Below are positions 27,379-53,595 of a stretch of 64,000 bases of DNA, in pieces. The position numbers and the translations under genes are program-made. The notes under the pieces are model-generated. The model was given only the letters and a program-made list of their open reading frames with translations, had not been told where the DNA came from and made no database searches. The stretch comes from a virus, in IMG/VR virus record IMGVR_UViG_3300032893_000029, positions 1 to 64,000 of that record. The stretch is one strand, 5' to 3'. Position 1 is the stretch's first letter. Each line of letters begins with the position of its first letter.

Positions 27379-27444
27379 ACCTCACCAAGAAATGTTAATG
27401 CCGGAACTGCCACGCGTCGCAGCGCGAGCTCAGGAGAACGCCCG

Positions 27445-27669
27445 ATGAAACACATCTTCATCCTCATGCTGATCTTCAACCGGGAACCGATGGTTCGGGT
27501 CGGAAGCTTCGACACCAAAAAGGCGTGCGATGCCGCCGGCTTCCCTCTGACCTACGGCGGAGTGGTGGAGGAAATGAGGAGCAAAGGCTGGATCAGGGAG
27601 GGCCAGTTAGTCAGCATCAGCGGAAGATATGCTGACGATTACACATGCGTTATGGCCAACGGCAGATGA
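27445..27669 (+). CDS. Hypothetical protein
   Basis: AGGAG RBS; FDTKKACDAAG motif. Confidence 0.6.
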   Translation: MKHIFILMLIFNREPMVRVGSFDTKKACDAAGFPLTYGGVVEEMRSKGWIREGQLVSISGRYADDYTCVMANGR

Positions 27670-27884
27670 GGCCCGCCATGCGGATTCGGCCCGACAGCGC
27701 CTTCATGCATTTCCATCGAGAGAACGTAAGCGGCGCCCTTATGCGCCGACTCTTGCGGATCAGATCGGTCTTCCGATCCTACAAACGGCTGATCTATCCC
27801 AACATGCCGTGGATCGGCGATGTGCCACGCGAGAACGTCGCGCTGATCCGGATGCGGGTGCAGGCGGCGAGGAAGCGTCGATGA
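27666..27884 (+). CDS. Hypothetical protein
   Basis: ATGA-coupled ORF. Confidence 0.45.
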   Translation: MRPAMRIRPDSAFMHFHRENVSGALMRRLLRIRSVFRSYKRLIYPNMPWIGDVPRENVALIRMRVQAARKRR

Positions 27885-28153
27885 AACTCGGACTGTTCTA
27901 TGTCGACAACAACCGCCGGTGCCGCGAGGCCAGATATCCGGGATATCGACGTATGCCGATTTCTGGCTATGAGGAATCGGTCAGCTTCCCGACGTGCAAT
28001 GCCGACTTCGAAGTCACGGCGACCGGGATTTTCTTCATCGACGACGCCGGGAATGTCATGCGGTCCGCAGAGCTCGTGCCGACTATCCGAATCCAGAAAT
28101 GCGTCACGCCGGTAATCATCACTGTCTGCAACTATGGGAAGAGGGTCGGGTGA
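27881..28153 (+). CDS. Hypothetical protein
   Basis: ATGA-coupled ORF MKLGLFYVDNN. Confidence 0.5.
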   Translation: MKLGLFYVDNNRRCREARYPGYRRMPISGYEESVSFPTCNADFEVTATGIFFIDDAGNVMRSAELVPTIRIQKCVTPVIITVCNYGKRVG

Positions 28154-28431
28154 TGCCGGGCTATCGCGCGGAATTTCCTGATGGTGTCCAGCGGCGCATC
28201 CGGAGGAGCAAACGGGTCTTCACCCATGCCTGGCGCGTCAAGGGTCTCTTCGGCGCCGAAAAGAAAAACATCGCGGAGTACGGCTTTGCCGGTTCGCGGT
28301 TTCTTGCTGAAGCCGCGGCGCACACCGTCGCCTCACGTTTCGCCAAGTACGGCAACGGCGATTATTCCGACATCGATCCGATATCCGATATCGTTACCGA
28401 GATCGTCACCGTGGTCGAAACCGATGGCTAA
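28153..28431 (+). CDS. Hypothetical protein
   Basis: TGATG-coupled ORF. Confidence 0.55.
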   Translation: MPGYRAEFPDGVQRRIRRSKRVFTHAWRVKGLFGAEKKNIAEYGFAGSRFLAEAAAHTVASRFAKYGNGDYSDIDPISDIVTEIVTVVETDG

Positions 28432-28768
28432 GGTCGATCCCTGTTATTCGGTTCAGTGTCCGGCGTGCGGGGCGCCGAAACATCATCGCTGCAAAAGCGC
28501 GAACGGGAAAAAGACTGCCGATCCGCATATCGATCGCCGGCGCGATTTCCAGAACGGCACAACAACACCGCCGCGGGTTCCGTGGTCGGCACCGGATGTC
28601 GCGACGACGCGCATGAAGTCGCCGCTGCTCGAGCTCATCAAGGATCGTAATCGCGCCATCATCGAAAATCTCGCCAAAGGACTTTCCGTCACGCTGATGT
28701 TCGGCGCCGTCCCGCTGACGACGTTCTATCCCGATGGTCGCGTCGAGCATCACGAGGATATGTTCTGA
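28424..28768 (+). CDS. Zinc-finger protein
   Basis: CPACGA....C..PHIDR motif. Confidence 0.6.
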   Translation: MAKVDPCYSVQCPACGAPKHHRCKSANGKKTADPHIDRRRDFQNGTTTPPRVPWSAPDVATTRMKSPLLELIKDRNRAIIENLAKGLSVTLMFGAVPLTTFYPDGRVEHHEDMF

Positions 28769-28992
28769 TGACGGACAGGAGCATTCATCCGAGGGCGGTG
28801 TCCTGGCAGCGCGACGGCGATACCGGCTATTCGTCGTCGGTCGGTGTTGTCTGGCGCGGGCCGGACAATCGCTGGTACGCGCAACCGGGTTCGAACATGC
28901 TTGAAGAAGACTTCTCGAACTGGCGAGCCGCAGCGCGTGCATGTGAGGAATGGCACGGGCGGCGCAGCAAGGCAACGGAACGTCTCCGCTAG
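28768..28992 (+). CDS. Hypothetical protein
   Basis: Coupled 74-aa ORF. Confidence 0.55.
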   Translation: MTDRSIHPRAVSWQRDGDTGYSSSVGVVWRGPDNRWYAQPGSNMLEEDFSNWRAAARACEEWHGRRSKATERLR

Positions 28993-29018
28993 ACCCGCTA
29001 CGGCCTTATCCCCAGCAA

Positions 29019-29034
29019 TGTTTCACGTGAAACA
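29019..29034. promoter_or_regulatory. parS: parS site (chromosomal ParB consensus)
   Basis: Exact TGTTTCACGTGAAACA palindrome in an intergenic region. Confidence 0.85.
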
Positions 29035-29105
29035 TTCATGCTTGGAGGCCGAAAAGTGATTTATAAACGGTCGCTTACTAGGCCGAAAATCAAGCAAAAA
29101 TAGTG

Positions 29106-29165
29106 CTTTACAGCCCCGGGCTTGGTGCCTGAACCTCTTCCCATCAAGACCGGTCGCAGCCGGTC
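29106..29165 (+). promoter_or_regulatory. Phage promoter motif plus UCGCAG hairpin (copy 1)
   Basis: CTTTACAG-N12-TGCCTGA then ATCAA and GACCGG-TCGCAG-CCGGTC. Confidence 0.65.
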
Positions 29166-29183
29166 GCGCATCAGGAGGACAAA

Positions 29184-29351
29184 ATGCCGGTATCCGAAAA
29201 GACAGTCCGCGTCCCGGTCGGCGGAAACGACACCGACGAGCTCGAGAAGCTGGTCGACGAGATTCTTTCCCGTCCGGAAAACGCGGACTACGAATTGGTC
29301 GACATATCGTCCGACGATGCAGTGACCGAGCTCACGCTTCGGCACATCTGA
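29184..29351 (+). CDS. Small acidic hypothetical protein
   Basis: AGGAGG RBS; MPVSEKTVRV..TLRHI, 55 aa; not in the ORF track. Confidence 0.6.
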   Translation: MPVSEKTVRVPVGGNDTDELEKLVDEILSRPENADYELVDISSDDAVTELTLRHI

Positions 29352-29374
29352 AACGACAAACGGAGGCGGATTCA

Positions 29375-29803
29375 ATGGCTCGGCTCAAATCAAACGGCGA
29401 AGTCGTCGGCACGATCGAAGGGATTCACGGTTCGAAGCGCTATATGTCGAACCGCGTCATCCTGAAGAACACCGGACACGGTTGGAAAAAATACGGCCGG
29501 TTGTCACCCGACATCGATCCGCGCACGGCGTTCGCCGAAGCGGTCGCAAAACAGAACAAGATGCTGGAACAGCGTCCGGCATACGCCGCATTCCGCAACG
29601 CGATTCATCGGGCCTGCGGTCTCTCGAAACGCTGGAGGCTCTATTCGGCAATCCAGTTGATGCCCGACGACGCCGACGGCGTCTGGTCGGAGGCCTGCGA
29701 CGGATACGACGCGGTCCACCTCGATCTGGACGAAGTCGTCGAGCTCTGCCGGCTCTACAAGGCAGCTATGAAAGAGAATTCCGAAGTCGACGCCGCGGCG
29801 TGA
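29375..29803 (+). CDS. Hypothetical early protein
   Basis: GGAGG RBS; 142 aa. Confidence 0.65.
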   Translation: MARLKSNGEVVGTIEGIHGSKRYMSNRVILKNTGHGWKKYGRLSPDIDPRTAFAEAVAKQNKMLEQRPAYAAFRNAIHRACGLSKRWRLYSAIQLMPDDADGVWSEACDGYDAVHLDLDEVVELCRLYKAAMKENSEVDAAA

Positions 29804-29862
29804 CTTTACAGGGGCCCGCTGGGTGCCTGACCATCACGACATCAAGAGCGTTCGCAGCGCTC
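29804..29862 (+). promoter_or_regulatory. Phage promoter motif plus UCGCAG hairpin (copy 2)
   Basis: CTTTACAG-N12-TGCCTGA, ATCAA, GAGCG-TTCGCAG-CGCTC. Confidence 0.65.
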
Positions 29863-29880
29863 GCACTTAGGAGGACAGCA

Positions 29881-30111
29881 ATGCTTAAGATCGAATTCAA
29901 TACCCGCGAATATGAATTCTCGCACGGCCACAAGCCGCGCGGGCGCGGATCATGGGCGTTCTTTCCCAATCGCAAGACGCTCATCGAGCAAGCGATGTGG
30001 ACGCCGTCGATGACCTACGGCGAGGCCAAGCGCTGGATCGCCGCCAAGCTCCGTTCGGCACATTGTCCCGATACGGATCACGACAGCATCGAACTCTTTG
30101 TCGGGAGCTAG
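29881..30111 (+). CDS. Hypothetical early protein
   Basis: AGGAGG RBS; HGHKPRGRGSWAF motif. Confidence 0.65.
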   Translation: MLKIEFNTREYEFSHGHKPRGRGSWAFFPNRKTLIEQAMWTPSMTYGEAKRWIAAKLRSAHCPDTDHDSIELFVGS

Positions 30112-30115
30112 ACCG

Positions 30116-30598
30116 ATGGCCCGCATCAATGAGAGTGCGACCTACGTCGGCACGATCGAGTGGCTCGAGAGCGGCAACCGTGTCGCGCTGTACTTCGGCG
30201 AAAACCGCAACACCGGCGAGGCGATTGTCTGGCAGAGCCTTCTAGGACGTTCCGGCAATCCCGGCGCCGATCGCCGCAGTGGCCCCGGTATCAGTCGACA
30301 CACCGGCCGCAACATCACGAAGCTGCTCGCCGAACTCAATCGGTATCTTAACGGCGGCGAACTCGTGTGGGCCGATCGCAGCGACAAGGTGTTCGACGCG
30401 CTGCTTCGGCGCGTCGATTTCGTCGCCACGAAAGACGAAGCGATCGAGCTGCGCGGCAAGCTTCTCTCGGAACGCGTCGACGCGTTGCGCCAGCTCCGAT
30501 TCGAGGCGTGCAAGCGATCCGGTGTCGGCCTCTACATTGAAAAGCTGGATGCTAGGATCAAGGCGCTCGACGAAGCCATCGCGGAGTTCGGGCCATGA
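30116..30598 (+). CDS. Hypothetical protein
   Basis: GGAG RBS; ORF in operon. Confidence 0.6.
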   Translation: MARINESATYVGTIEWLESGNRVALYFGENRNTGEAIVWQSLLGRSGNPGADRRSGPGISRHTGRNITKLLAELNRYLNGGELVWADRSDKVFDALLRRVDFVATKDEAIELRGKLLSERVDALRQLRFEACKRSGVGLYIEKLDARIKALDEAIAEFGP

Positions 30599-30759
30599 CC
30601 GACGACAGACTCGACCTCAACGATCTGCGCCGCGCCCATGCCCGCGAAAAGCTTCGTGTGCAGAGACAGCGCGAACGCGACAGGCGTGCCCGGGAACAGC
30701 GTGAACACCGCAACCGCAAACAGTACAACCGGTTTCTCCGTCAGCACGGCGAAGCCTGA
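30595..30759 (+). CDS. 54-aa Arg-rich helical protein
   Basis: MTDDRLDLNDLRRAHAREKLRVQRQRERDRRAREQREHRNRKQYNRFLRQHGEA; ATGA coupling; not in the ORF track. Confidence 0.55.
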   Translation: MTDDRLDLNDLRRAHAREKLRVQRQRERDRRAREQREHRNRKQYNRFLRQHGEA

Positions 30760-30770
30760 AAGGAACAGCC

Positions 30771-31094
30771 ATGATCACGAAAACCAATGCCAGCGCCTAC
30801 GTCCGCCCGCTTGAGAACTGGCGAGCGGTTTGGGACAAGGTCCGGCCGTCTTCTGCCGCAGAGCTCGGCAAACATATTCTCGGTGATGTCACCGGGTATC
30901 GATCTCCGACCCATCAAGACGACGACGCCGAACAAGTCGGCCGCGCCGTCATCGCCTACCAACAACCGCTTGTAGATCTGCTCAGCGAGGCGGAAAGCTT
31001 CATCGCCGGATTTGAGGGCGACACGACGCAGAAAGGTGTCGACGATCTGCTCGACCGCCTCCGCAACGCGATCCTGAGGGCGACGGTGTCATGA
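30771..31094 (+). CDS. Hypothetical protein
   Basis: 107-aa ORF with RBS. Confidence 0.6.
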   Translation: MITKTNASAYVRPLENWRAVWDKVRPSSAAELGKHILGDVTGYRSPTHQDDDAEQVGRAVIAYQQPLVDLLSEAESFIAGFEGDTTQKGVDDLLDRLRNAILRATVS

Positions 31095-31660
31095 CCACGA
31101 TCGAATTCGAACGCGTCATCCGCGACTGCAAGGCCAATGACCGCTGCAACGATCCGCGCTTCCTGATCGCCGATTATGATGTCGTCATCGACGGTACGGT
31201 TCGGGCGACGTTTTCCAGGAATGCCGGCTCCAAGGGCTACCGGCTCTATGCGCCGGACGGTTTCCCGATCACGGCGGAACCGATGAAGTGGAACGAGGAC
31301 CCGAACTGGCGAATCGTTTCGGCGGAAACCAAGAGCGAATTCGGCTCCATCCTCGCCGAACTTCTGCTGGCGCAACGCATCCCGACGCCGGCGGATGTCG
31401 AACAGCGGATCGCCGGCGAAGCCCGGGCGCGTGAAATCGCGATCGAGCTCCATGTTGAGGCCGGTCGGGAACGGGTCGTGAAGAAGCACGCGATGGAACT
31501 TTATCGGCACATGATTGATGACCGCCGGGTCAACGGTGCCGCAGCGGTTGCCGTCGGGCCGCTCCTAGCGAAGATCGACGCGGAGCTCGCCGAACACGAA
31601 GCCTGGGTCAGAGAAGCCTGCGAAACCGGCGCGATCAGCATCTGGAGTCTGCCGTCATGA
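31091..31660 (+). CDS. Hypothetical protein
   Basis: 189 aa, coupled. Confidence 0.6.
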   Translation: MTTIEFERVIRDCKANDRCNDPRFLIADYDVVIDGTVRATFSRNAGSKGYRLYAPDGFPITAEPMKWNEDPNWRIVSAETKSEFGSILAELLLAQRIPTPADVEQRIAGEARAREIAIELHVEAGRERVVKKHAMELYRHMIDDRRVNGAAAVAVGPLLAKIDAELAEHEAWVREACETGAISIWSLPS

Positions 31661-32274
31661 AAAATCGATTCCCACGCGAATTCTACATCCCCGCCGGCAG
31701 CGTCAAAGTTGCCGACAAGAACTCGACCGCGGTCGCATATCTGTACGACACGAAGAGCAGCAAGCCCGGCGCGGTCTGTTTCGCCGGGAAGGCTGACAAG
31801 CCGGCGGCGAAGTTCTATTTCAACGGACCGAAACAGCGGGAGCAGTTCGTGAAAAACTTTTTCGAGCGCCAGCGCGCGATCGAGGCCAACCGTGTTGCTG
31901 CTAGGCAGAACCGGAAGGCCTTCGTGCATTCCGTTCAGGTCGGCGACATCTACAGGACGTGCTGGGGCTACGACCAGACCAATGTGGAATTCTTCGAAGT
32001 CGTCGAAGTGAATGGCAAATACGCCCTGCTTCGCGAGATCGCCGCGGAATCGATCAGCAACGGCCACGGCCAAGACACGCTGATGCCGCTATCCGGCGCC
32101 TTCCTGACGCCGCGATATAAGGGCGACGATCGCGGCCTGCCGATCCGGCGGCTGATACAGCCTCACGGGATCAAGATCGATGATGTCCGCACGGCACGGG
32201 CATGGGGCAAGCGCGTCGCCGGCGTCGTCATCGGACAACCGGCAACGGCAACATCTTCGGGATGGGGGCACTGA
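31657..32274 (+). CDS. Conserved hypothetical mobile-element protein
   Basis: VGDIYRTCWGYDQTNVEFFEVV motif. Confidence 0.7.
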   Translation: MKNRFPREFYIPAGSVKVADKNSTAVAYLYDTKSSKPGAVCFAGKADKPAAKFYFNGPKQREQFVKNFFERQRAIEANRVAARQNRKAFVHSVQVGDIYRTCWGYDQTNVEFFEVVEVNGKYALLREIAAESISNGHGQDTLMPLSGAFLTPRYKGDDRGLPIRRLIQPHGIKIDDVRTARAWGKRVAGVVIGQPATATSSGWGH

Positions 32275-32356
32275 TGACCAAGGCGCTGTGGTTGCTGCTT
32301 CTCGGAAGCTGTTCGCTGTGGGCGCTTGTCATCGGCGCCGCCTGGCTGGTGTCGCC

Positions 32357-33208
32357 ATGATATCTGACGCGAAAGGCACCGAACTGATCAAGCGCGCCAG
32401 CATTGACGAGTTGATCGGCCATCGAAACCGTGCGCTCGAGCTCTACAAGACGGCGTTCGACATGATCGTGTCCGGCAACGAGGCGTTTTCCAGGGCGGTG
32501 CCATCGAAGATCGGATACGCCCATATCGGCCGCGAGGAAGTCGACCGTCTTAACTTCATCAGCGAACCCTATGTCGAGCGGACCCGTGACGACTTCGTCG
32601 AGCGGTGCCGCAAGCACATCGATCGGATGTTGTGGGAGCATCTTCTGCTCGCCACCGGGATCGGCGATGTCATGGACGCCGCGCAAAAGGAACAGTTCCG
32701 CAAGCAGGTCAGCGATAACCCGCCGGTCTGTTCCGCGGAAACCTGCGCGGCGACCTGTCTGACGCTCGCCGGCAGGGCGCCGGAGCTCTTCGACCGCTCC
32801 GTTATCACGGTGTTCGAAAGTCTATGCCGCCGGCGCTACAAGTCGCATGATGGCTGGGAAATCGGGCCAAGGATCATCATGACCTATACGGTGTCGTTCT
32901 GGTCCGGTTCGTTTTCCTGGTCCTACAGTTCCTATGCCAACGGCCGCGACAGGGTCCGCGATATGGATCGCATCTTCCACATCCTCGACGGCAAGACACC
33001 GCCGGGACAGGAAGCCGATTGCACCAATCTAGTCGCGCAGGCGATGACGGACCGGAATCAGAAACAGTTCTCGACGCCGTATTTCCGGTTCCGCTGGTTC
33101 GAAAACGGCAACCTTCATGTCTACATTCTCCGCGACGATCTGCGGGAGAAGGCGAACCGCATCGTGGCGCGTCACCACGAAAACACTCTCGCCGATACGA
33201 GGATCTGA
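32357..33208 (+). CDS. DUF4942-like protein
   Basis: YKSHDGW..RIIM..DMDRIFHILDGK..YFRFRWFENGNLH. Confidence 0.75.
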   Translation: MISDAKGTELIKRASIDELIGHRNRALELYKTAFDMIVSGNEAFSRAVPSKIGYAHIGREEVDRLNFISEPYVERTRDDFVERCRKHIDRMLWEHLLLATGIGDVMDAAQKEQFRKQVSDNPPVCSAETCAATCLTLAGRAPELFDRSVITVFESLCRRRYKSHDGWEIGPRIIMTYTVSFWSGSFSWSYSSYANGRDRVRDMDRIFHILDGKTPPGQEADCTNLVAQAMTDRNQKQFSTPYFRFRWFENGNLHVYILRDDLREKANRIVARHHENTLADTRI

Positions 33209-33211
33209 TCG

Positions 33212-33436
33212 ATGACAACCACTGAGGACAAAAAGAACGGAGAATTTGTTATGGAAACTTTTGTCGATGTTGACGGATCGACGCGCTGCAAAGCATGTGC
33301 TCTCCACCCGGATGAATGCACTTGCCGTCCAGATCATCCAATCCGCCGGATTGTGAATACCGCGTTTGAGCGCGAAGCCGCGATGCAGAAGTTCTTACGC
33401 GTCTGCGGTCGAAACGTATTCGTTGGCTCTGACTAG
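33212..33436 (+). CDS. Hypothetical protein
   Basis: CKAC..ECTC. Confidence 0.45.
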   Translation: MTTTEDKKNGEFVMETFVDVDGSTRCKACALHPDECTCRPDHPIRRIVNTAFEREAAMQKFLRVCGRNVFVGSD

Positions 33437-33447
33437 AAAATTAACCG

Positions 33448-33900
33448 ATGACGAAATTCGAAACTCCGGCGTTGCAACGAGCCTACGATGTCGCGGTCAA
33501 AGCGTTCCACGATAAGCAAAGCTATCTCTATGCTGACGGGAAGCCATTGCGCGGATCATCGGACCGTCACTCATTCTGGAATGGATTCAACGGTCATCCG
33601 CCGCGGCACGCGAAAACGTCGATTGCTTACGCGACATGGGCGGCTGGCCGCGACATGCGCGAGCAAGCACGACGCCCGACTGACCAGGACGTGCTCGAGC
33701 TCTTGACGGCCGCGGAAAACGGCCTTGCATCGATGATGACCGAGCTATCCATGATCCTCGAAAGTCACTGCAAGCTTGACCGGAACTACAAGCCGCGACG
33801 CGCCACGCTCGATCCTGGTGTCAAACGGTTTGTCGAGACGCTTGAAGAAAAAATCTCGCAGGCGCGTAAAGCGATCGCGAACTGCAGGAAACCATCTTGA
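33448..33900 (+). CDS. Hypothetical protein
   Basis: 150-aa ORF. Confidence 0.6.
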   Translation: MTKFETPALQRAYDVAVKAFHDKQSYLYADGKPLRGSSDRHSFWNGFNGHPPRHAKTSIAYATWAAGRDMREQARRPTDQDVLELLTAAENGLASMMTELSMILESHCKLDRNYKPRRATLDPGVKRFVETLEEKISQARKAIANCRKPS

Positions 33901-34210
33901 CGCGCCCGCCGGCGATCGTCTCGGTCCTGATGCGCGGGATATTCATCGGCGGGTTTCTCGCGGTGCTGCTATGGGCATTTTGCCTTCTGCCGCCTCGTCG
34001 GATGGGTCTAGGCCGGGCCCCCGGGCGGGACCCTTCGCAGGGGCCCCGCCAGACCTAACCAGGGCGCTTAGGAGACGGTGGGAACCATCAATCCCTAGTC
34101 AGGCCTCCCCTTTCGGGGCCCGGCCCGTATAGCACGAATCAGGGCCCGGAAAAGACCCCGCCGCCGGTCAAAAATGGCGGAATTCCGGGGAAAAAATCGT
34201 CCGGTGGTGG

Positions 34211-34270
34211 CTTTACAGCTCCGGGCTGACTGCCTGAAACTCGAATCATCAAAGGGGATCGCAGTCCCCC
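34211..34270 (+). promoter_or_regulatory. Phage promoter motif plus UCGCAG hairpin (copy 3)
   Basis: CTTTACAG-N12-TGCCTGA, ATCAA, GGGGA-TCGCAG-TCCCC, then AGGAG. Confidence 0.65.
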
Positions 34271-34284
34271 GCTAGGAGTCCGAA

Positions 34285-34905
34285 ATGACCTACGACGAAA
34301 ACCCCTACGGAAACCTTTCCGATGTCGAGCTCGTCGAATTCGTGCTCGGCCCCAAGGCCAAGGAAGGCATCGCGGAAACGCTGGTCCAGTCCTTCGGCAA
34401 TTTTCAGGAAGTTGTCGCGGCGACTCCGGTCCGTCTTTCCGAACACGGGCTTTCCGACCATGCCGTTACGCGGCTGAAGAAATTCCACACCGCGGCGACG
34501 CGGATGCACGCCCTTAAGGTTCTCAATCGGCCAGCGATGTCGAGTTGGGCGGATGTCACCGAATATCTCACGGTGAAGATCGCCAGACTGGAGCACGAGG
34601 AATTTCATGTGCTGTTTGTCGACCGCAAAAACAACCTGATCGCCGACGAAAGGATGAGCCGCGGCACGATCGACCACGCCCCGGTGTATCCGCGCGAAGT
34701 GGTGAAGCGGGCGCTCGAACTCAATGCCGCCAGCATCATCCTCTCGCACAATCACCCCAGCGGCGACCCGACACCCAGCCGCGCCGATATCGACATCACG
34801 CGAAAGATCGTCGACGCCTGCAAGGCCATCGACATCCGGGTGCTCGATCACGTCATTGTTGGCCGCAATGGCACGGCCAGCATGAAGGCCTTAGGGCTGA
34901 TCTGA
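34285..34905 (+). CDS. radC: RadC (JAB/MPN domain) protein
   Basis: EHEEF..GTIDHAPVYPREVVKRAL..HNHPSGDPTPSRAD..VLDHVIVG. Confidence 0.92.
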   Translation: MTYDENPYGNLSDVELVEFVLGPKAKEGIAETLVQSFGNFQEVVAATPVRLSEHGLSDHAVTRLKKFHTAATRMHALKVLNRPAMSSWADVTEYLTVKIARLEHEEFHVLFVDRKNNLIADERMSRGTIDHAPVYPREVVKRALELNAASIILSHNHPSGDPTPSRADIDITRKIVDACKAIDIRVLDHVIVGRNGTASMKALGLI

Positions 34906-34927
34906 AAATCAAAGGAGAGACCGGACC

Positions 34928-35161
34928 ATGCGTTACGGACAAAAAAACGGCGACGGCCCGACAGCCGGCAAAAAGGCAACCGTCTATGAAATCGCCATGC
35001 CGGACGGGTCGATCGTGAAGAAGCGGGTATTCCGAGACGATATGGGCGACACGCTTATAGCCACGGCTCTCCGGCACAACGGCAAAATCTTGGCCGTTGT
35101 CTGGCCGGGAGTTCCGGAATGGGAAGGCGACTTTGGGCAGCTTGTCGCGAGGAAGGTCTGA
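34928..35161 (+). CDS. Hypothetical protein
   Basis: AGGAG RBS. Confidence 0.6.
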   Translation: MRYGQKNGDGPTAGKKATVYEIAMPDGSIVKKRVFRDDMGDTLIATALRHNGKILAVVWPGVPEWEGDFGQLVARKV

Positions 35162-35162
35162 C

Positions 35163-35336
35163 ATGAAAAAGCTCACCAGAGCCCATCAAAAAATCCTGTC
35201 GCAAGCGCTCGACATCGCGGTGTCGATCTGGTCGAGCAACGCGACGTGCCCGACATTTCCGAAGCCGGTCCGGCAGGCCTATCGTCGCCGCGTCGATAAT
35301 GTTGCCGCGCTTCGGAAGAAACTCGACTTTCACTGA
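35163..35336 (+). CDS. Hypothetical protein
   Basis: MKKLTRAHQK, 57 aa. Confidence 0.45.
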   Translation: MKKLTRAHQKILSQALDIAVSIWSSNATCPTFPKPVRQAYRRRVDNVAALRKKLDFH

Positions 35337-35348
35337 AGGAGATATTGT

Positions 35349-35882
35349 ATGGGGACTAAACGCGAAATTATTCCATTCTCGCCGCTTCCCGGCAAAGAGT
35401 GGCGCGCCATCGAGGAATGGATGGGATACGAAGTTAGCAATTTTGGCCGGGTTCGGCGCGTATCTCTGATGGTCGCGCGACCAAATTCAGATGGCTATCC
35501 AATGGTTCATCTCAGTTTCGGCAAACGAGGCAAAGCCAGACTTCGGGCAGTGCATATATTGGTGACGCAGGCGTTTCACGGTCCACGGCCATCGCCACGG
35601 CATACCGCATCGCATGAAGACGGCGTCAGAAGCAATTGTCGTTCAGACAATCTCTTATGGGAAACACACTCGGAAAATCTGGCTCGCCGAAGGGACCACG
35701 GGACACATATTGTCGGTGAGCGCAACGGCACGGCCAAGCTCACCACCAACCAGGTATTGGAAATTCGAGCGAAACGCGCAGCCGGGCCGCGCGGAATAGT
35801 CAAAGCCCTAGCGCTAGAATACGGCATGTCGGAGTCAACAATCAGCCGTATCTGTCTTCGGCAAGGATGGTCTCATGTCTAA
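35349..35882 (+). CDS. NUMOD4-HNH homing endonuclease
   Basis: EWRAI..YEVSNFGRVR; VHILV..AFHG..HEDG..NCRSDNL.W.T.SEN. Confidence 0.85.
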   Translation: MGTKREIIPFSPLPGKEWRAIEEWMGYEVSNFGRVRRVSLMVARPNSDGYPMVHLSFGKRGKARLRAVHILVTQAFHGPRPSPRHTASHEDGVRSNCRSDNLLWETHSENLARRRDHGTHIVGERNGTAKLTTNQVLEIRAKRAAGPRGIVKALALEYGMSESTISRICLRQGWSHV

Positions 35883-36774
35883 AATTCGAGTGGACCGTAT
35901 CAAACCCGATCCGGGCCAGCCTAGAAAACTCTTTGATCTTGCGGACCTTCAAGAGCTCGCCGCGTCGATCAAAGCCAACGGATTGCTGCAGCCGATCCTG
36001 GTCCGGCCGGCAGAGAAAAAAGGCGAGTTCTACATCGTCGCCGGCGAGCGGCGCTGGCGCGCCCAAAAGCTGCTGATCGACGCCGGCGAGAAGGGCTTCA
36101 CCCAAATCGAATGCTCGCTCGCCGGACTGCCGGGCAAGCCGATGAAGGAAGTCACCCTCCGGGTGAAGCAGATCGTCGAGAACGTCGTCCGTGCCGACAT
36201 GACGCCCCTCGAGGAAGCCCACGCCTTCCAGAACCTGCTCGAGCTCGGTCTTGATGAGCAGAAAGCGGCGAGCCACATCGGCATTCCGCTGAGCAAGTTC
36301 CAGCGCAGTGTGTCACTGCTCCGGCTCGAGCCGCAGATTGCGAAGCTGCTCGCGGCGAAACAGATCGATGTCCCGCAGGCCTATCAGCTTGCCAGGCTCC
36401 CCCGCCACGAAGACCAGATGCAGATCCTTCGCCTGCTGAACCGCGGCGAGCTCGGCAAGTGGAAATCCTTCGAAGCCGCGATCGATGCGAAGCTTGAAGG
36501 CGTCACCCAGGAAGATTTCTTCGGACCCGGTGCGCCGGCGGCAACCGAAAAGGAAGTCGCCGAACTCAACGCGATGGAGCAGAAGATCGAGCGGGTTGCC
36601 GGGCTTCTGTCGGCCGGCTGGTCCAAGGGCGCCTGTATCGTCGCCAACAAGGTCTCCCCCGATCGCGCCCGACACATGGCCGACAGGCTCGCCGCGATCC
36701 GGCTTACCGTCCGCACGATGGAAGCAGAATTGCGAGCTATTAACGCTCAAGCGAAAATTGCCCTGGAGACATGA
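35875..36774 (+). CDS. parB: ParB/Spo0J-family protein
   Basis: QPRKLF..GLLQPILVRP..IVAGERRWRA..ENVVRADMTPLEEA plus HTH. Confidence 0.88.
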   Translation: MSKIRVDRIKPDPGQPRKLFDLADLQELAASIKANGLLQPILVRPAEKKGEFYIVAGERRWRAQKLLIDAGEKGFTQIECSLAGLPGKPMKEVTLRVKQIVENVVRADMTPLEEAHAFQNLLELGLDEQKAASHIGIPLSKFQRSVSLLRLEPQIAKLLAAKQIDVPQAYQLARLPRHEDQMQILRLLNRGELGKWKSFEAAIDAKLEGVTQEDFFGPGAPAATEKEVAELNAMEQKIERVAGLLSAGWSKGACIVANKVSPDRARHMADRLAAIRLTVRTMEAELRAINAQAKIALET

Positions 36775-37266
36775 GTGCTCACGAAAGCGGTCGTTAGGAG
36801 GCTTTTCGATTACAACCCTGTCACCGGTTCGCTCACCTGGCGCATCAGCCCCGCCAACAGAGTGAAAGTCGGAGACGAGGCCGGGACGGTTAGTTGTGGA
36901 TACCGAAGAGTCCGGATCAAGAATAAGCCATATCTCGCGCACATCATCATCTGGATCTGGATGAAGGGCAGGCTACCGAAACGAAAAATCGACCATCGCG
37001 ACGGAAATGGTTCGAACAACAAATGGTCGAATCTTCGGATGGCAACATCTACAGAAAACCAGCGGAACACAAAGCTTAGAAAAGATAATTCCTCAGGCGT
37101 CAAAGGTGTTTCATTTCATAAACGATACGGGAAGTGGGCGGCCTACATCACCATCAACAAAAAGACGATCACAATAGGCTTTTTCGACAGCGTCGAAGCA
37201 GCGGCAGAAGCAAGACGCAATGCCGCGCTGAAACACTTTGGCGAGTTCGCTCGCGAAGTGGCATGA
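36775..37266 (+). CDS. HNH endonuclease with AP2 domain
   Basis: IDHRDGNGSNNKWSNLR; NSSGVKGV..KWAAYI..IGFFDSVEAAAEAR. Confidence 0.88.
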   Translation: MLTKAVVRRLFDYNPVTGSLTWRISPANRVKVGDEAGTVSCGYRRVRIKNKPYLAHIIIWIWMKGRLPKRKIDHRDGNGSNNKWSNLRMATSTENQRNTKLRKDNSSGVKGVSFHKRYGKWAAYITINKKTITIGFFDSVEAAAEARRNAALKHFGEFAREVA

Positions 37267-37292: not shown

Positions 37293-37907
37293 ATGCCAAT
37301 TCCACCGACAAAACACGGTCTACCAGCTATGGCCTGCGTCTCCGCGCTCCAGAAATGCATCCGCCGCGGCCTCGAGCGCGAGGCGATGGAGTTCGCCGTC
37401 GAACTCCATGAAACATCGAAGGGCTTCAATACAATGCTCTGCAATCGCCTAGAAATAATTAGTCATGAGGACATCTGCATTTTTTCGAGCCCGCACATCG
37501 TTCCTTTCGTCAAGGCGTGCTGCGATCAGGCTAGGGAGTGGTACGACCCGAAGATGCTGAAGCCCGGCAAATCCAGGATGGCGATCGGCAACGCGATCCG
37601 CATGATGGCGCGGGCACCGAAGAGCCGGGAAGGCGATCATTTTCACGTCGCCGTCGGGCTGCGCGCCGCGCTCGAACACTACGTCCCGGAAATCCCGGAT
37701 TGGGCGAACGACGGTCACACTCTCGTCGGCAAGCGCATGGGCCGCGGCCTCGACTTCTTCCGGGAAGTCTCGACGCAGCTATATCCGGCGCCGGCCGTCG
37801 CAGACCCTTACGAGGAAGAGTTTTACCGCCTTCTCGCGCTCAAAGCGCGACAGCCTAAGACGGCGACACCGGGAGACTTTCTTGGCGCGGAAGATCAAGA
37901 CGAGTAG
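37293..37907 (+). CDS. Stand-alone RarA/MgsA C-terminal-like domain
   Basis: VSALQKCIRRG..RLEIISHEDI..ARAPKSR..IPDWANDGHT..G; no ATPase domain. Confidence 0.7.
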   Translation: MPIPPTKHGLPAMACVSALQKCIRRGLEREAMEFAVELHETSKGFNTMLCNRLEIISHEDICIFSSPHIVPFVKACCDQAREWYDPKMLKPGKSRMAIGNAIRMMARAPKSREGDHFHVAVGLRAALEHYVPEIPDWANDGHTLVGKRMGRGLDFFREVSTQLYPAPAVADPYEEEFYRLLALKARQPKTATPGDFLGAEDQDE

Positions 37908-38547
37908 CCACGATATCGGCGACAAGCTGTTTGACGTCTAGGCCGTCCTGGTCACAGGTACTTTTCAGGGCCCACGTCAGGAAGTCCTGCATCGCTTCAC
38001 TGCTCTTGCGGAAGAGATCGTGGTGCCAAATCACCGGCACCGCGTTCTCGGCCGCTTTGAAGCGCAGATGTTCCGACATAAAGGTGTGTGCCGCGATCGC
38101 CCGCTGCCGGACACTGTGATGCTCGCCGACGCCGTACCCGCGGTTGTGCAGGGCCCAATAGGCGTGCTCATAGAAAGACCACACCCTGGCACGCGTCGGC
38201 GGGAACGACAGATCTGCCGGCCGCAGGAAGACGAAGCAGCGGAAGTGCCGCATGAAGAGCTCGAGCTTCATCGGCGAGAAGACTTCCTTGGTGAAGGTAA
38301 AGCCTTCCGTCCCCCACGTCTCCTTGATGCAGCGATCGGCCCGGAAATCGCCGGGATCGGCGATTTTGTCGTAGCACTCGACGAGCTCGCAGCCGAAGTG
38401 CTGCACCAGGGCCCGTTCGTGCTTGAAGTTCCGGATTGGATTAAAGAACTCCGGGGCACAGCGACAGCCCTCGATGTTCCTGGCGATCTGCTCGCCGAAC
38501 CAGGTCGACCCGCTGTTCGGCAGGCTCAGCATAAGAAGTGGTTTCAC
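37855..38547 (-). CDS. Sulfotransferase-like P-loop protein
   Basis: N-terminal LLMLSLPNSGSTWF (PAPS-binding loop-like), EFFNP, FVFLRP. Confidence 0.65.
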   Translation of the reverse strand: MKPLLMLSLPNSGSTWFGEQIARNIEGCRCAPEFFNPIRNFKHERALVQHFGCELVECYDKIADPGDFRADRCIKETWGTEGFTFTKEVFSPMKLELFMRHFRCFVFLRPADLSFPPTRARVWSFYEHAYWALHNRGYGVGEHHSVRQRAIAAHTFMSEHLRFKAAENAVPVIWHHDLFRKSSEAMQDFLTWALKSTCDQDGLDVKQLVADIVATRLDLPRQESLPVSPS

Positions 38548-38555
38548 TGGCGCCC

Positions 38556-39320
38556 CTATTTCTGTGCGGTCTTGTTCGTCCTCTTCACCGCGATGCGAAT
38601 CGCGGCGACATCCCGATTTTTAGCAAATGCCGGCGGCTTGAACGAAACGGCGTCGCCCCAGGTGTGCCGCAGAGCTCGCGACGCCTTCTCGAACTGCTCC
38701 GGGGTCACCAGACCGACATTGCCGCCGCGGCCGGAAAAGACGCGGCCACAATCGAAATAGAACCGGATGTCGGCATAGACGCAGCGGTCCTCGAGCAGCG
38801 TTTGCAGCGTCCAGTCGACATCGGCGCGACCGAAGTACTCCGGCCGGTAGTGCCGCCGGCGGGCCCGTCCCATGACGCCGAAGGCGTTGCAGACCGATTG
38901 CGTCGGCACGATCGGGCGGACATCCGGTTTGATGACTGTGGTGTTCGGCGTCCTGGAGAAGCAGAACGTCGTCAGACCGAGGTCTTTCGTGTTGCGGGCG
39001 GAGTTTTCGAGGATGGCGAGGATTTCGTCGGGACTGTGGATGTAGCGCTGAGATCCCGTCGTCACCTTGACGCCGCGGAAATCGTCATCGATTTCGATGA
39101 GAATATCCGCGCTGACGTTATCCATCATCCAGTTGATCACATAGGGCAGGCCTTCCATCGGCGGGTGGAGCAGAAGCTTGTCCTTCGGGACTTCCGACGC
39201 GTAATCCTTGGCCTCGCGCTCGTCGACGCAGATCACAGCGGAGGGAAGCAGATGCCGCAGCAGCGGCATGTTGTGGGCGCGCCGGCGGGACGGGACCACG
39301 ATCCGGTAATCGAGCTTCAT
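38556..39320 (-). CDS. GT-A glycosyltransferase (GREB1/TET-associated type)
   Basis: IVVPSRRR..ILIEIDDDF..ADVDWTLQ..GGN. Confidence 0.8.
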   Translation of the reverse strand: MKLDYRIVVPSRRRAHNMPLLRHLLPSAVICVDEREAKDYASEVPKDKLLLHPPMEGLPYVINWMMDNVSADILIEIDDDFRGVKVTTGSQRYIHSPDEILAILENSARNTKDLGLTTFCFSRTPNTTVIKPDVRPIVPTQSVCNAFGVMGRARRRHYRPEYFGRADVDWTLQTLLEDRCVYADIRFYFDCGRVFSGRGGNVGLVTPEQFEKASRALRHTWGDAVSFKPPAFAKNRDVAAIRIAVKRTNKTAQK

Positions 39321-40146: not shown

Positions 40147-40157
40147 TGCATGGCCCC

Positions 40158-41555: not shown

Positions 41556-41608
41556 TCGTGCTCTCCTCTTTCTGTCTCTGACGTACTTCGGGACGAAACG
41601 CGGCATGG

Positions 41609-42691: not shown

Positions 42692-43038
42692 GGGCGATCG
42701 ACCTTCCAGGAAAGTCGATAAGTGTGCGCAGAAAACGGGTGCCAACTGATTCGGCCGCCAATCTTCGTTCTATTCTTTCGAATGACGTAACCGGCTCTGA
42801 CCAGACGATTGATTGAGCGCGCGATAGTGGCGCGATCTACACAGACAGCAGCAGCCATTTTTGTTTGGCTAACCCGGCACCAGTTTTTCTTTCGAGCCAA
42901 CAGGATCAAAAAACAGAGCACCCGCAGATCGTTGCGTTTTAGCGTCGGATCACTGCAAGCACCGAATGGCACCGCGATCTGCGCAGGCGGACGGCCAAAA
43001 AATTTCGGATCGGTTCTGAATTTTGCGGCGCGGGTCAC
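42688..43038 (-). CDS. Winged-HTH protein
   Basis: SQTKMAAAVCVDRATIARSINRLVRAGY. Confidence 0.7.
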   Translation of the reverse strand: MTRAAKFRTDPKFFGRPPAQIAVPFGACSDPTLKRNDLRVLCFLILLARKKNWCRVSQTKMAAAVCVDRATIARSINRLVRAGYVIRKNRTKIGGRISWHPFSAHTYRLSWKVDRP

Positions 43039-43823
43039 AGCATCGACCCCTGGCGTTTCGGGTCCGGTGTGACCGCTTCCGCCGGCATCCACTTAGCCGA
43101 TTTGTCCTTGATCTCGGCATAGACCCGGGGATGCTGCGCGCGGAATCGCGGCATCTGCCGGCCTTCGAAAAGCTTGCCGTCCTCGACGCGAAGCCATTCC
43201 TGCGCGATCCAGCGGCGGACATCGATGTTGAGCGCCTTGAAATCGGCACGGGTCACATGACCTCTGAGCTCGAGGATGACCGCGATCTTCAGTGCGCGGA
43301 CTTTCCAGTCCGTCAATTGCACCGGCGCTTTGCTGCCGGCGATGACATCCGGCACGAAATCCGGAAGTCTGCACCGCCGATACGGCGCCCGCTCGTGCCA
43401 GGCCTCCGACCAGATTCCGGTGTCGTCGATCGCTGGGAGCACGGGATCGAAAGCACCGCTGTAGCGGAATTTCAGATCGCCGTGCCCTTCCGGCCAGCAC
43501 CGCAGAATTGTCAGACCGAGATATTCGCAGATGCGTTCGAGCTTTTGCAGCCCAACATACGCCGGGACCAGAACGGCACGGCAATCCGGACCGTTGCGGT
43601 CGAAATAGCTGTTTCCCAGCGCCTGGTTGATGACATCGAGATTCATCGCCATCTTGGCCTGAATCCCGATCTGGAATCCGTCAACTTTCCTGACCAGAAG
43701 GATGTCCCAGCCGGCGGTTTCGTTGTAGGCGATCCAGGCCTCGCCGATGAGCGATGTGAAGCGGGCGCACAACGCGGCCTCGCTTTCGAACTTCGGCTCT
43801 TCGGTCCTGACCCCCTTTCGCAT
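43035..43823 (-). CDS. PD-(D/E)XK-like hypothetical protein
   Basis: YNETAGWDILL..IGIQAK. Confidence 0.55.
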   Translation of the reverse strand: MRKGVRTEEPKFESEAALCARFTSLIGEAWIAYNETAGWDILLVRKVDGFQIGIQAKMAMNLDVINQALGNSYFDRNGPDCRAVLVPAYVGLQKLERICEYLGLTILRCWPEGHGDLKFRYSGAFDPVLPAIDDTGIWSEAWHERAPYRRCRLPDFVPDVIAGSKAPVQLTDWKVRALKIAVILELRGHVTRADFKALNIDVRRWIAQEWLRVEDGKLFEGRQMPRFRAQHPRVYAEIKDKSAKWMPAEAVTPDPKRQGSML

Positions 43824-43827
43824 CCCG

Positions 43828-44028
43828 TCAGCTCCGATAGATGCGGCGATTGCGTTTCGGTCTCGGCACGCCGGCGTCGTCAAGAATCTTTGCGATGGTC
43901 ATCATGCCGCGCCCCATGCGTGTGGCGATGGTCGACACGGCGAGATCGTGCGGCGGCTTCGCCAGCGCGATGATGCGATCGCGTTCTTTCTCGTCGATCG
44001 GTGGCAATGTCCGATAGGCGCCGCTCAT
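43828..44028 (-). CDS. Small HTH protein
   Basis: STIATRMGRGMMTIAKILDDAGV. Confidence 0.55.
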   Translation of the reverse strand: MSGAYRTLPPIDEKERDRIIALAKPPHDLAVSTIATRMGRGMMTIAKILDDAGVPRPKRNRRIYRS

Positions 44029-44600
44029 CAGACCGCTCCCTGATCGAAGAGCCCGACCTGGTCGCCCCAGTTGTCCCAGCCGGCGCGATCCGTTCTGGTG
44101 AACAGATCGGCGCGATTGACCAAGTTCCAGCAATGGGCGTCGACCATCGCGTAAAATTCTTCGGGCTTGCGGGAATGCTCGCGGGCCAGACCTTCGAATG
44201 TCGACGGAAACGGCTTGTGCTGCGGCGAGCCCGTGGTTGCGAGAAGAATCGGCTCGTGCATCGTCCGGACGCGATAGCCGGTCCCCATTCGGTTCTTGTT
44301 GTTGACGGTCTTTTTGAGCCAGACGATCTCGCTCTTCGGCACAAAGCCCCATGTCCGCACGATGTCCGTCGCGATGCCTTCGGCCATCGCCCAGCCCGTG
44401 GTCCAGAACAGCAGGAGGCAGTCCTTGCTGGCGAGCTCGCCAACCGGAAGGGCCTTGATGTCGGCCAGCGGCATGACCTTGTAATGGGGATCGGCACCCT
44501 TGGCGGTACCGGCGTCGGAATAGTTTTTGAAATCCAGCGGAACATCGGCAACAATCAACTCGTAGCCGAACATCCGCAGTCCGCCGAACTGCCAACTCAT
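44028..44600 (-). CDS. MT-A70-family methyltransferase (motif IV variant DVPL)
   Basis: HYKVM..IKALPV..LFWTT..WGF..W.K..GTGY..E..REHSRKP. Confidence 0.85.
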   Translation of the reverse strand: MSWQFGGLRMFGYELIVADVPLDFKNYSDAGTAKGADPHYKVMPLADIKALPVGELASKDCLLLFWTTGWAMAEGIATDIVRTWGFVPKSEIVWLKKTVNNKNRMGTGYRVRTMHEPILLATTGSPQHKPFPSTFEGLAREHSRKPEEFYAMVDAHCWNLVNRADLFTRTDRAGWDNWGDQVGLFDQGAV

Positions 44601-44772
44601 CGCACACGCTCCTTCGCGAGCGCTGCCATCTGTCCGTGATTCGCCGGACCCACGGCAAGGGGGTCCATCGCGTTTCGTTCCGGAAAAATTTCTAGCTGGC
44701 CTACGCAAAACAAAGGGGCGCCTCCCGGCTGATCCCGGGAAGACACCCCAGCATTACCCCCGACGCTGCTTC

Positions 44773-51971: not shown

Positions 51972-52159
51972 TGCTGCGCAATGCCGTCATCGGGACGATC
52001 GGCTGTTTCGGCGGCTTCGTCGGGATCTGTATCTCGGTCATCATCGCCTCGAGCGTCGATCCTAATGCCAAGCATCTTAATGTTTGGCGCGTCTTGCTGC
52101 CGGCTTCTGTTTTGATCGGTGCGGTAAGCTTCGGCGTCGTCGGCGGATTGCTGCCATGA
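51971..52159 (+). CDS. Small membrane protein
   Basis: Two hydrophobic segments. Confidence 0.5.
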   Translation: MLRNAVIGTIGCFGGFVGICISVIIASSVDPNAKHLNVWRVLLPASVLIGAVSFGVVGGLLP

Positions 52160-52479
52160 CGGAGGGTTTCAAGATCACGTGGCTCGATTCCGGACTGGAG
52201 CCGCGGTGTGCGCCGAATCCAAACTATCCCAACGGTATCGATGTCGATGTCAGTGACGGCGCGTTGAAAACCTGCCGCGTCGAGCTCCCTTATCCGGCGA
52301 AGCGCATCGGTCGTTATCGCGTCGAATGCGAGAAGTGCGGGATCAAGGCCGAATGCACGACAGCCGGCAGGCCGGATGATCCGACGAGCATCACCATCGG
52401 CTGCTACACCCAAAAACTCTTTCCCGGTGTGACCAGGATCACAATCGGGCCAAGCCCCGTAAAGGAGAAAAAGCCGTGA
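52156..52479 (+). CDS. Hypothetical Cys-rich protein
   Basis: PNPNYPNG..CEKCG..TAGRPDDP. Confidence 0.6.
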   Translation: MTEGFKITWLDSGLEPRCAPNPNYPNGIDVDVSDGALKTCRVELPYPAKRIGRYRVECEKCGIKAECTTAGRPDDPTSITIGCYTQKLFPGVTRITIGPSPVKEKKP

Positions 52480-53300
52480 GAACACAAGATGAAATCCTCG
52501 CCGAAGCCCGGCGATCGATTCGTGTCAGAGAAGATCCTTTCGGCACCTATCTCGGCGAACTTATCATGCGCTTGCCCTTCGATGTCGCCAATGAATTCCT
52601 CACGGTCGAAGCGACGGCGGAAAAATTCGGCGATCCAAAACCATGCGATGACGAAACCGTCATCGGCGAGCTCAGGGAGTACATGGCATTCGCCTGGGAC
52701 AAAGCCAACAATTGTCGCGGTCTTTCCGCGGTGCGATCGCTCTATCACATGAAGGCCTGGCTGTGGCTGCTCGGAGAAGATGACGCCGCGACACATCTGT
52801 TCGACGACTATCGTTTCTACGGCAAGCCGCAACTCGCCGCGATTTGCGAGCATTACGCGATCGACTGGAAAGCGCTCGATGACGGCAACTGGACCAACGA
52901 CGAAAGCTGCAACGGACCTGTTGGCTGTCCGGAACCGCTCAAATGGAACCAGCCGGCGCTTTCCGTCGAGACGCCGCCGGCGCCGGACAAGATCACCGCA
53001 GAAGAAATGCGCACGGTGTTCGGCACCGACATGCCGATCGAGGCGGTCAAGCTGCTCTGGGAAACGCCAGACGACTGGACCGTTGGTCAGGTCCGCGCCG
53101 AGCTCCGTCGCATCATGGAAGAGCGCAAGAAGGCAAGAACCATCACGATACATATAAAAGTCCCGCCGGAACCGCGGCTGGAAACCCCGACGACGGCGCT
53201 GCGCTGGAACGGCGGCGTGCTGGAACAGGCCTTCGTGCATCATGTCCCGCCGTCCTACACCGAAGAAATCGAGTGGCGCCGCGTTCCAGACGCCGAATAG
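52476..53300 (+). CDS. Hypothetical protein
   Basis: YMAFAWDKANNCRGLSA..YGKPQL. Confidence 0.65.
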   Translation: MRTQDEILAEARRSIRVREDPFGTYLGELIMRLPFDVANEFLTVEATAEKFGDPKPCDDETVIGELREYMAFAWDKANNCRGLSAVRSLYHMKAWLWLLGEDDAATHLFDDYRFYGKPQLAAICEHYAIDWKALDDGNWTNDESCNGPVGCPEPLKWNQPALSVETPPAPDKITAEEMRTVFGTDMPIEAVKLLWETPDDWTVGQVRAELRRIMEERKKARTITIHIKVPPEPRLETPTTALRWNGGVLEQAFVHHVPPSYTEEIEWRRVPDAE

Positions 53301-53310
53301 AGGGGGAGCC

Positions 53311-53595
53311 ATGACATACAAAATCGTGGCTGGCGCCGTCGTCGTTTTCGGTCTTGTCGTGTCGGTCTTCGCGATAGTTTCGCGCGTGCTGCCGCAACCG
53401 GCGCCAGGGCGCACGGTTGTTTGCGGCAACGATTTCTTCTTGCTGGAAAAGGGGTCGCAGCCCCTTGTCGGCACCGACGGCAATGTGCTGTGGCCGTCGG
53501 ACTGGTCGACAGAACAGGCGCGTCAGTACCGCGACAAGCATCACATCCCCGGCGGCTGGCGCCCGACGGACAGAACAGAAGAGAGAAAGCCGTGA
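53311..53595 (+). CDS. Hypothetical membrane-anchored protein
   Basis: N-terminal transmembrane segment. Confidence 0.5.
   Translation: MTYKIVAGAVVVFGLVVSVFAIVSRVLPQPAPGRTVVCGNDFFLLEKGSQPLVGTDGNVLWPSDWSTEQARQYRDKHHIPGGWRPTDRTEERKP

Follow-up and report, generated by a model that had tools for sequence, protein, structure and literature searches.

In the first 64,000 nucleotides of the IMG/VR virus record IMGVR_UViG_3300032893_000029 (the window, part of a 73,635-nt viral contig), hairpins with the loop TCGCAG occur six times, all on the plus strand and all inside plus-strand gene blocks, which raises the question of whether they form a regulatory element and, if they do, what reads it. A first-pass annotation had listed the six hairpins and taken them for binding sites of a phage antiterminator or translational regulator; every one of them was found where it had been placed. 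Three of the six turned out to belong to a repeated cassette of promoter-like and leader sequences, which is absent from that annotation. We propose, with what we consider about an even chance of being right, that the hairpin is a leader-RNA tag, bound by a putative protein that would control how these messages are translated and/or how stable they are from beside the ribosome-binding site.

A fixed loop within a repeated cassette

The cassette is present in three copies in the early region of the plus strand, each with the same elements in the same order: CTTTACAG, TGCCTGA, CATCAA, the hairpin, AGGAG, and ATG. In the first copy, P1 (29106-29186), TTTACAG (29107-29113) is followed by a 13-nt spacer, GCCTGAAC (29127-29134), and CATCAA (29142-29147). 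The hairpin GACCGG-TCGCAG-CCGGTC (29148-29165, 6 bp, -10.7 kcal/mol) comes next and ends 7 nt before AGGAG (29173-29177), with ATG at 29184. Copy P2 (29804-29883) starts with the base right after the stop codon of a gene for a 142-amino-acid protein; its hairpin GAGCG-TTCGCAG-CGCTC (29846-29862, -7.5 kcal/mol), with a 5-bp stem and a 7-nt loop, lies 6 nt before AGGAG (29869-29873), and its ATG is at 29881. Copy P3 (34211-34287) precedes a RadC-like gene and contains GGGGA-TCGCAG-TCCCC (34254-34269, 5 bp, -8.3 kcal/mol), located 4 nt before AGGAG (34274-34278) and followed by ATG at 34285. Thus, the hairpin starts 0-1 nt after CATCAA in the cassettes and is followed by 4-7 nt, AGGAG, 6-7 nt, and ATG. 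The energies given here and below were calculated with ViennaRNA for the isolated hairpins.

The motif CTTTACAG-N3-C-N2-GCT-N3-TGCCTGA occurs only at 29106, 29804, and 34211. When the 19-base promoter-like pattern was searched with up to three mismatches, 3 matches were obtained against 0.00 in 100 shuffles, and allowing up to four mismatches still returned just the same three in the whole contig. An alignment of the three copies that runs from CTTTACAG through the loop needs no gaps and has 34 invariant columns out of 54, and TCGCAG begins exactly 48 nt after CTTTACAG in all three. The six bases preceding the loop differ completely among the cassettes (GACCGG, GAGCGT, and AGGGGA), yet in every one of them the two sides of the loop form a stem of 5 bp or more (P ~1.8e-9, for a Watson-Crick chance of 0.261 per position). 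As the loop is defined here by the cassette and not by choice, this probability requires no look-elsewhere correction, and it is the cassette that carries nearly all the statistical weight of the hairpin observation. An RNAalifold result for the three MAFFT-aligned cassettes, in which the 3' arms came out misplaced, was not used.

Upstream of the hairpin, the cassettes resemble promoters. Their -10-like boxes (GCCTGAAC/GCCTGACC/GCCTGAAA) are followed by CATCAA 7 nt further on, and A/T-rich stretches lie just upstream of the -35 in P1 and P3. Both boxes resemble the Caulobacter RpoD consensus (TTGaCgS and GCtANAWC; PMC8144410), and the phage-borne tmRNA described below hints at an alphaproteobacterial host. 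The -35-like box mismatches the consensus at two positions, one given in upper case and one in lower case. The ATCAA that the first-pass annotation had seen ahead of three hairpins corresponds to the CATCAA that directly precedes those three of the six, and it recurs there because it is part of the cassette, where it is likely the region of the transcript start. Each -35/-10 spacer also holds a GC-rich near-palindrome (29111-29122, CAGCCCCGGGCT; 29809-29820, CAGGGGCCCGCT; 34216-34227, CAGCTCCGGGCT), framed by conserved CAG...GCT, the inner bases of which change and stay self-complementary.

The other three hairpins lie outside the cassettes. The first, CGCG-TCGCAG-CGCG (27413-27426), has no promoter motif and is weak (4 bp, -6.4 kcal/mol); it is followed by 5 nt, AGGAG (27432-27436), 8 nt, and the ATG (27445) of the first plus-strand open reading frame (ORF). 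We count it as a likely member of the set because it reproduces the hairpin-AGGAG-ATG layout on a strand where AGGAG is rare (only 39 occurrences in 73,635 nt). The membership of the other two is uncertain. The long GC-rich hairpin GGCGGGACCC-TTCGCAG-GGGCCCCGCC (34024-34050, loop at 34034-34040, -18.6 kcal/mol), with 9 of 10 positions paired and one A.C mismatch, sits in the 385-nt gap before cassette P3, whereas AAGGGG-TCGCAG-CCCCTT (53449-53466, 6 bp, -10.6 kcal/mol) is located inside an ORF (53311-53595) with no AGGAG after it. Since 0.36-0.86 further stem-flanked copies are expected by chance, one of 27413, 34024, and 53449 could be accidental.

Taken together, the six hairpins bear out the earlier description of an invariant loop with freely varying stems. 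The hexamer is identical in all six, with an extra T on its 5' side in two copies (29846 and 34024). Counting outward from the loop, the first three pairs are Watson-Crick in all six hairpins, with 2-3 pair types per position, and the fourth position is paired in five; the variety of pair types at each position means that both arms of the stems have changed between copies. A script was used to count the pairs, because MAFFT had aligned the hairpins with the additional T of two loops out of register. The five short hairpins have ordinary stabilities in isolation, between -6.4 and -10.7 kcal/mol, and in longer context the minimum-energy fold contains the hairpin for 29148, 34254, 53449, and 27413. 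In 4/6 hairpins, in agreement with the four reported earlier, AGGAG follows after 4-7 nt and ATG another 6-8 nt on; AGGAG lies within 19 nt in 5/6. The 29846 copy, with its 5-bp stem and 7-nt loop TTCGCAG, corresponds in size to a tRNA anticodon arm, which may be a coincidence.

We then asked how far the recurrence of the hairpin exceeds chance. The TCGCAG hexamer as such is not enriched (50 matches versus 64.8 +/- 8.1 in shuffles). The genome-wide count of stem-flanked TCGCAG, which the first-pass annotation had proposed as a check, was compared with that in the full 73,635-nt contig after dinucleotide shuffling (300 replicates) and yielded 4 copies against a shuffle mean of 0.36 for stems of at least 4 bp, and 3 against 0.12 for stems of at least 5 bp. 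This excess concerns a hexamer picked after looking, in a genome with 206 hairpins that have a six-base loop and a stem of at least 5 bp. Other hexaloops reach similar numbers with stems of at least 4 bp (AAGCCG with 4 copies, CGACGA and CGCGGC with 3 each), and therefore the recurrence of TCGCAG alone is near chance once all hexamers are corrected for. Raising the minimum stem to 5 bp leaves TCGCAG as the sole loop of 6-8 nt in this genome that is seen with at least three different stems; when 182 loci of other phages (1.73 Mb in total, the loci being shorter than this genome) served as a rough control, 2 had such a loop family. What supports the earlier reading is the covariation of the stems around a fixed loop, the number of hairpins alone being weak evidence. 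Hairpins with one mismatch in the loop (plus strand, 35215; minus strand, 2767) were set aside, as the count of such variants is at chance level; the plus-strand one, TCGACA-TCGCGG-TGTCGA (35209-35226, 6 bp), which differs from the motif by a single loop base, falls within a small ORF.

A message, a polymerase, or a DNA site

The same figures bear on the view that the hairpins act at the DNA level, as an operator or a cruciform at about +6 to +23, or that the copies outside the cassettes are accidental. The motif does lie in a promoter-proximal region, a GC-rich palindrome is also found in every promoter spacer, and both the 0.36-0.86 stem-flanked TCGCAG expected per genome and the hexaloops with 3-4 copies speak for chance as the source of the extra copies. 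However, a sequence-specific dimer needs conserved half-sites, and here the arms differ completely and the center alone is kept; this excludes the usual kind of dimeric DNA-binding site and suggests a single strand that folds. In addition, the transcribed strand bears six of six copies, the hairpin-AGGAG-ATG spacing recurs at 27413, and the two uncertain copies are well paired (53449 with 6 perfect pairs, 34024 with 9 of 10), so we regard this view as extremely unlikely. With all copies on the transcribed strand, four at a fixed distance from the ribosome-binding site and one of them promoterless, the target appears to be the message rather than the polymerase or the DNA.

If the message is the target, the hairpin might still be purely structural: a 5'-end stabilizer or an insulator of the ribosome-binding site with no specific reader, its loops being alike by descent or exchange. 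Hairpins that stabilize messages from the 5' end are well known. The location near the probable 5' end and just before the ribosome-binding site is consistent with such a role, as is the outcome of a scan of 80 ORFs, in which no family of a possible reader was found. In a structural element, however, the loop would be the least constrained part, and yet it is invariant in six of six copies while the stems and spacers of the cassettes have diverged completely; three copies lie outside the cassettes (27413, 34024, and 53449), and the isolated hairpins are of ordinary stability. We therefore consider a purely structural hairpin unlikely. An invariant loop amid diverged surroundings argues for a sequence-specific reader, and since four hairpins abut a ribosome-binding site, a control site acting at the RNA level is the best reading.

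In the leader-tag reading, cassettes P1-P3, which head gene blocks of the plus-strand early region, would each be a phage-specific promoter plus leader. Transcription would start within CATCAA, 7 nt past the -10-like box, where a start is expected, and the hairpin would span roughly +6 to +23 of the message, 18-20 nt ahead of the start codon. The stem would need only to pair, the fixed loop being read by one common trans-acting partner. Bound to the loop beside the ribosome-binding site, this partner would set the translation and/or stability of these messages jointly. The 27413 copy, which has no promoter of its own and is equally spaced from AGGAG, would tag the first ORF of the block. Were this the case, one factor reading the loop would co-regulate four unrelated early genes through an RNA tag of 16-18 nt. 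Such a small, portable tag might also be of use as a part in synthetic biology. Taken alone, this is a small observation from a single genome.

A number of results weigh against the leader tag. The recurrence of the hairpin by itself, being near chance, is not convincing, and the set comprises only three cassettes and three other copies in one genome. For 29846 (P2, in its 58-nt context) and for 34024, the minimum-energy fold is another structure; that of 34000-34075 uses a different apex than the TTCGCAG at 34024. The -10-like box is off the Caulobacter consensus at one upper-case and one lower-case position, and an E. coli-type promoter scan gave 4 sites versus 3.6 expected, none at P1-P3. 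No RNA run is listed as holding the sequence, and the start site and the action at the RNA level are what we infer. Considering 5'-end-dependent decay, the ~5 unpaired bases ahead of the hairpin are long for a pure 5'-end protector. No N, Q, sigma, RNA polymerase, or RNA-binding family was found among the 80 scanned ORFs. The cassette or tag was in none of the collections searched, and as no relative with the motif was found and the metagenome runs are identical, the covariation is one among paralogous copies only.

The first-pass annotation had also proposed that a further copy, at 27150 in a structured RNA, might act as a sponge. The 12-mer GGGGATCGCAGT does occur at 27150, where it repeats 34254-34265, but the idea has no support. 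The copy has no complementary flanks and is paired otherwise in the computed fold, so that no hairpin is formed; with 1,282 distinct 12-mers recurring on the plus strand, such a match means nothing; and 27050-27445 shows no more folding stability than shuffled sequence (z -0.38). Between an HNH-like ORF and the first early gene, the segment 27075-27378 has no convincing ORF; Rfam matches it only weakly (27275-27358, 20.8 bits versus a gathering score of 69) to the tRNA-like part of YrlA (Y RNA-like), with T-arm-like and D-arm-like helices aligned.

Known systems and a possible reader

In the lambda-type nut site, boxA, a spacer, and the boxB hairpin are read by N (PMC2724277). By analogy, the TCGCAG hairpin could serve processive antitermination, loading a phage arginine-rich protein from the nascent transcript onto RNA polymerase for terminator read-through. 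Like nut, the hairpins would be small structures of the nascent early transcript near early promoters, with the loop as the recognized part: a fixed-loop hairpin stands right after each of the three promoter-like sequences, and one copy is ahead of the first early ORF, which recalls nutL before N (PMC2724277). The block also encodes two small and very basic ORFs, one at 27678-27884 (68 amino acids, isoelectric point 12.0) and the other at 30595-30759 (54 amino acids, isoelectric point 11.5, 18 arginines plus lysines). The sharing of one loop by all sites is a likeness in form only, as both length and sequence differ from lambda boxB (6-7 nt here versus a 5-nt boxB loop, PMC2724277).

The other parts of a nut system were not recovered. 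Searching for boxA (CGCUCUUA or rrn-type, PMC2724277) with up to one mismatch gave 33 and 6 matches versus 40.3 and 15.4 expected, that is, at or below chance, and none of the matches on the plus strand is upstream of a hairpin. There are also no terminators to override: in a simple intrinsic-type scan of 26-38 kb, no plus-strand site was found after 26689, and this lone terminator-like site is upstream of the block. No T-run follows any of the six hairpins, and the five within 26-38 kb were not flagged by the scan. No N-like family was found among the 80 ORFs, and the two basic ORFs match no family. Unlike in lambda, the stems differ between copies, and there are six copies, one of them intragenic, instead of two. 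Finally, the tight spacing of 4-7 nt to AGGAG, which holds for the promoterless copy as well, points to the ribosome-binding site and not to the polymerase. We consider antitermination distinctly unlikely, and the specific nut/boxB comparison of the first-pass annotation is not supported.

As to the reader of the leader tag, the basic ORFs at 27678-27884 and 30595-30759 are only candidates for an RNA-binding protein, judged from their composition. A partner RNA with an exposed complementary CUGCGA loop was not found; the sequence around the two copies at 45.4 kb is no different from shuffles in its folding (z -0.61).

Translational operators offer a parallel in position. Those of E. coli thrS, T4 gene 43, and the RNA-phage coat proteins consist of a short hairpin with a specific loop within ~20-35 nt upstream of the start, where the bound protein competes with the ribosome. 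They are single-copy and mostly autoregulatory. The TCGCAG hairpin is likewise a short hairpin with a sequence-specific loop beside a ribosome-binding site; it differs from them in that one tag is common to four unrelated genes.

The promoter-early stem-loop (PeSL) cassettes of the T4-type phages RB49 and phi1, about 50 per genome (PMC2839356), resemble ours in being repeated intergenic stretches of ~80-100 bp with the same parts in order (an A/T-rich stretch, a promoter or, in our case, a promoter-like sequence, a stem-loop, a Shine-Dalgarno sequence, and a start) before small genes of unknown function. Their stem-loops often occupy the -35/-10 spacer position (PMC2839356). The cassette described here might then be a mobile module of this kind, the stem-loop of which attenuates read-through from upstream, its ~80-bp repeats serving as recombination sites that shuffle small genes; P1-P3 do precede small ORFs of unknown function, and relatives of the phage carry repeated intergenic hairpin modules of their own at the same gene borders. 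On the other hand, there are 3 copies in place of about 50, in an unrelated phage. The hairpin lies downstream of the -10-like box and the probable start, in contrast to a PeSL hairpin within or before the promoter; it has no terminator-like T-run and a stem of only 5-6 bp. Moreover, PeSL stems are relatively conserved (GGGG...CCCC, PMC2839356), the reverse of a fixed loop with variable stems, and variable stems would hinder homologous exchange rather than aid it. A PeSL-like function is accordingly very unlikely.

In Cluster K mycobacteriophages, 11-19 copies of start-associated sequences (SAS) are found per genome, each of 13 bp, with an extended form that has conserved 17-bp inverted-repeat arms and a variable spacer (PMC3203893). 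Like the SAS, the TCGCAG hairpins are phage-specific repeats, all of one orientation, at the translation starts of a subset of non-structural genes, and like the extended SAS they place inverted repeats just upstream of the start. They depart from it in that the arms vary and the center is conserved, there is no 13-bp counterpart at the starts beyond AGGAG, and the copies number 4-6. In build, the cassette is closest to PeSLs, and in logic the hairpin is closest to boxB and the translational operators, with an association with start sites that recalls the SAS; it lacks defining features of each of the nut, PeSL, and SAS families. We found no description of a TCGCAG-loop motif in the portions of the published literature covered, either on the loop sequence or on phage early-promoter stem-loops with a conserved loop.

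Relatives and genomic setting

Searches in other collections returned neither the cassette nor the tag. A blastn search with 27001-35000 against 50,697 phage records gave no match. The promoter pattern had 0 matches in IMG/VR and 6 in GTDB genomes, from six unrelated lineages, where ~4 are expected by chance on a rough estimate; the sole alphaproteobacterial one among them (L090) was rejected, having no CATCAA or hairpin behind it. The leader pattern CATCAA-N6-TCGCAG-N9-13-AGGAG had 11 matches in IMG/VR, none of which (0/11) has pairing flanks. Among 89 IMG/VR loci around homologues of the 142-amino-acid or the RadC-like protein (1.23 Mb), there were 3 stem-flanked TCGCAG, none at a homologous place, and 80 metagenome loci (424 kb) held 1. 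The regions preceding 10 RadC homologues contained no such cassette. The sequence is identical in three wetland DNA runs, with no differences at the hairpins, and the best non-self homologue of the 142-amino-acid protein has 62% identity.

The relatives, which share 41-62% protein identity, have repeated intergenic hairpin modules of their own, with different loops and flanks, where the homologous gene begins and ends. In several of them, a sigma-70-type promoter can be read from the sequence upstream of the homologue of the 142-amino-acid gene. It is conceivable, though on balance doubtful, that the TCGCAG hairpin belongs to a widespread and so far undescribed phage strategy, in which early leaders are tagged by hairpins with free stems and the loop is a phage-specific address for a phage-encoded protein. 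In the present phage, the reader of such an address might be the arginine-rich ORF at 27678-27884 or that at 30595-30759. A strategy of this kind would amount to a private post-transcriptional or antitermination regulon, following an N-boxB-like logic with unrelated parts and joined to a private type of promoter.

The relatives' modules stand before the ribosome-binding sites to either side of the 142-amino-acid gene homologue and fall into several types. That of two loci (L096 and L105) consists of ATCGAAG and then three hairpins; three others (L097, L100, and L102) have a long AGCCCGC...GCGGGCT hairpin followed by GGCGGTACTACCAACCA; and in L104 the module is CGGCCGGC-GCAA-GCCGGCC after CTAATCA.

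The contig represents a whole phage genome. A metagenome contig of 73,538 nt wraps round, its record positions 63975-73538 and 1-467 both mapping to 26500-36500, which indicates a complete phage genome, circular or circularly permuted, of ~73.5 kb. The terminase (22855-24633) and portal (20683-22167) genes are on the minus strand, the portal protein having at most 48% identity to those of the nearest cultured phages. The early region, a block of small genes on the plus strand, extends from 27445 to ~37900 and includes the RadC-like gene (34285-34905) and a ParB-like gene (35875-36774). The latter is flanked by two HNH endonuclease genes, one with a NUMOD4 and the other with an AP2 domain, and a minus-strand block contains Mom-like and MT-A70 methyltransferase genes; together these features take up 35349-37266 and 37855-44708. 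A second plus-strand block, at 45-62 kb, contains genes for a 5'-3' exonuclease, RecT, and ParB-like proteins. The phage has three ParB-like genes in all, and a parS-like palindrome around TGTTTCACGTGAAACA (29017-29036) lies ~70 nt upstream of cassette P1.

In an Rfam scan of the whole window, the hairpin matched no family, and the only family matched at its gathering score was transfer-messenger RNA (tmRNA). This tmRNA (61129-61525) is of the permuted alpha type, with the tag ANDNTFAGADRVAA, and hints at an alphaproteobacterial host. Because it lies within a genome that assembles as a ~73.5-kb circle, it is phage-borne and not part of a host flank.

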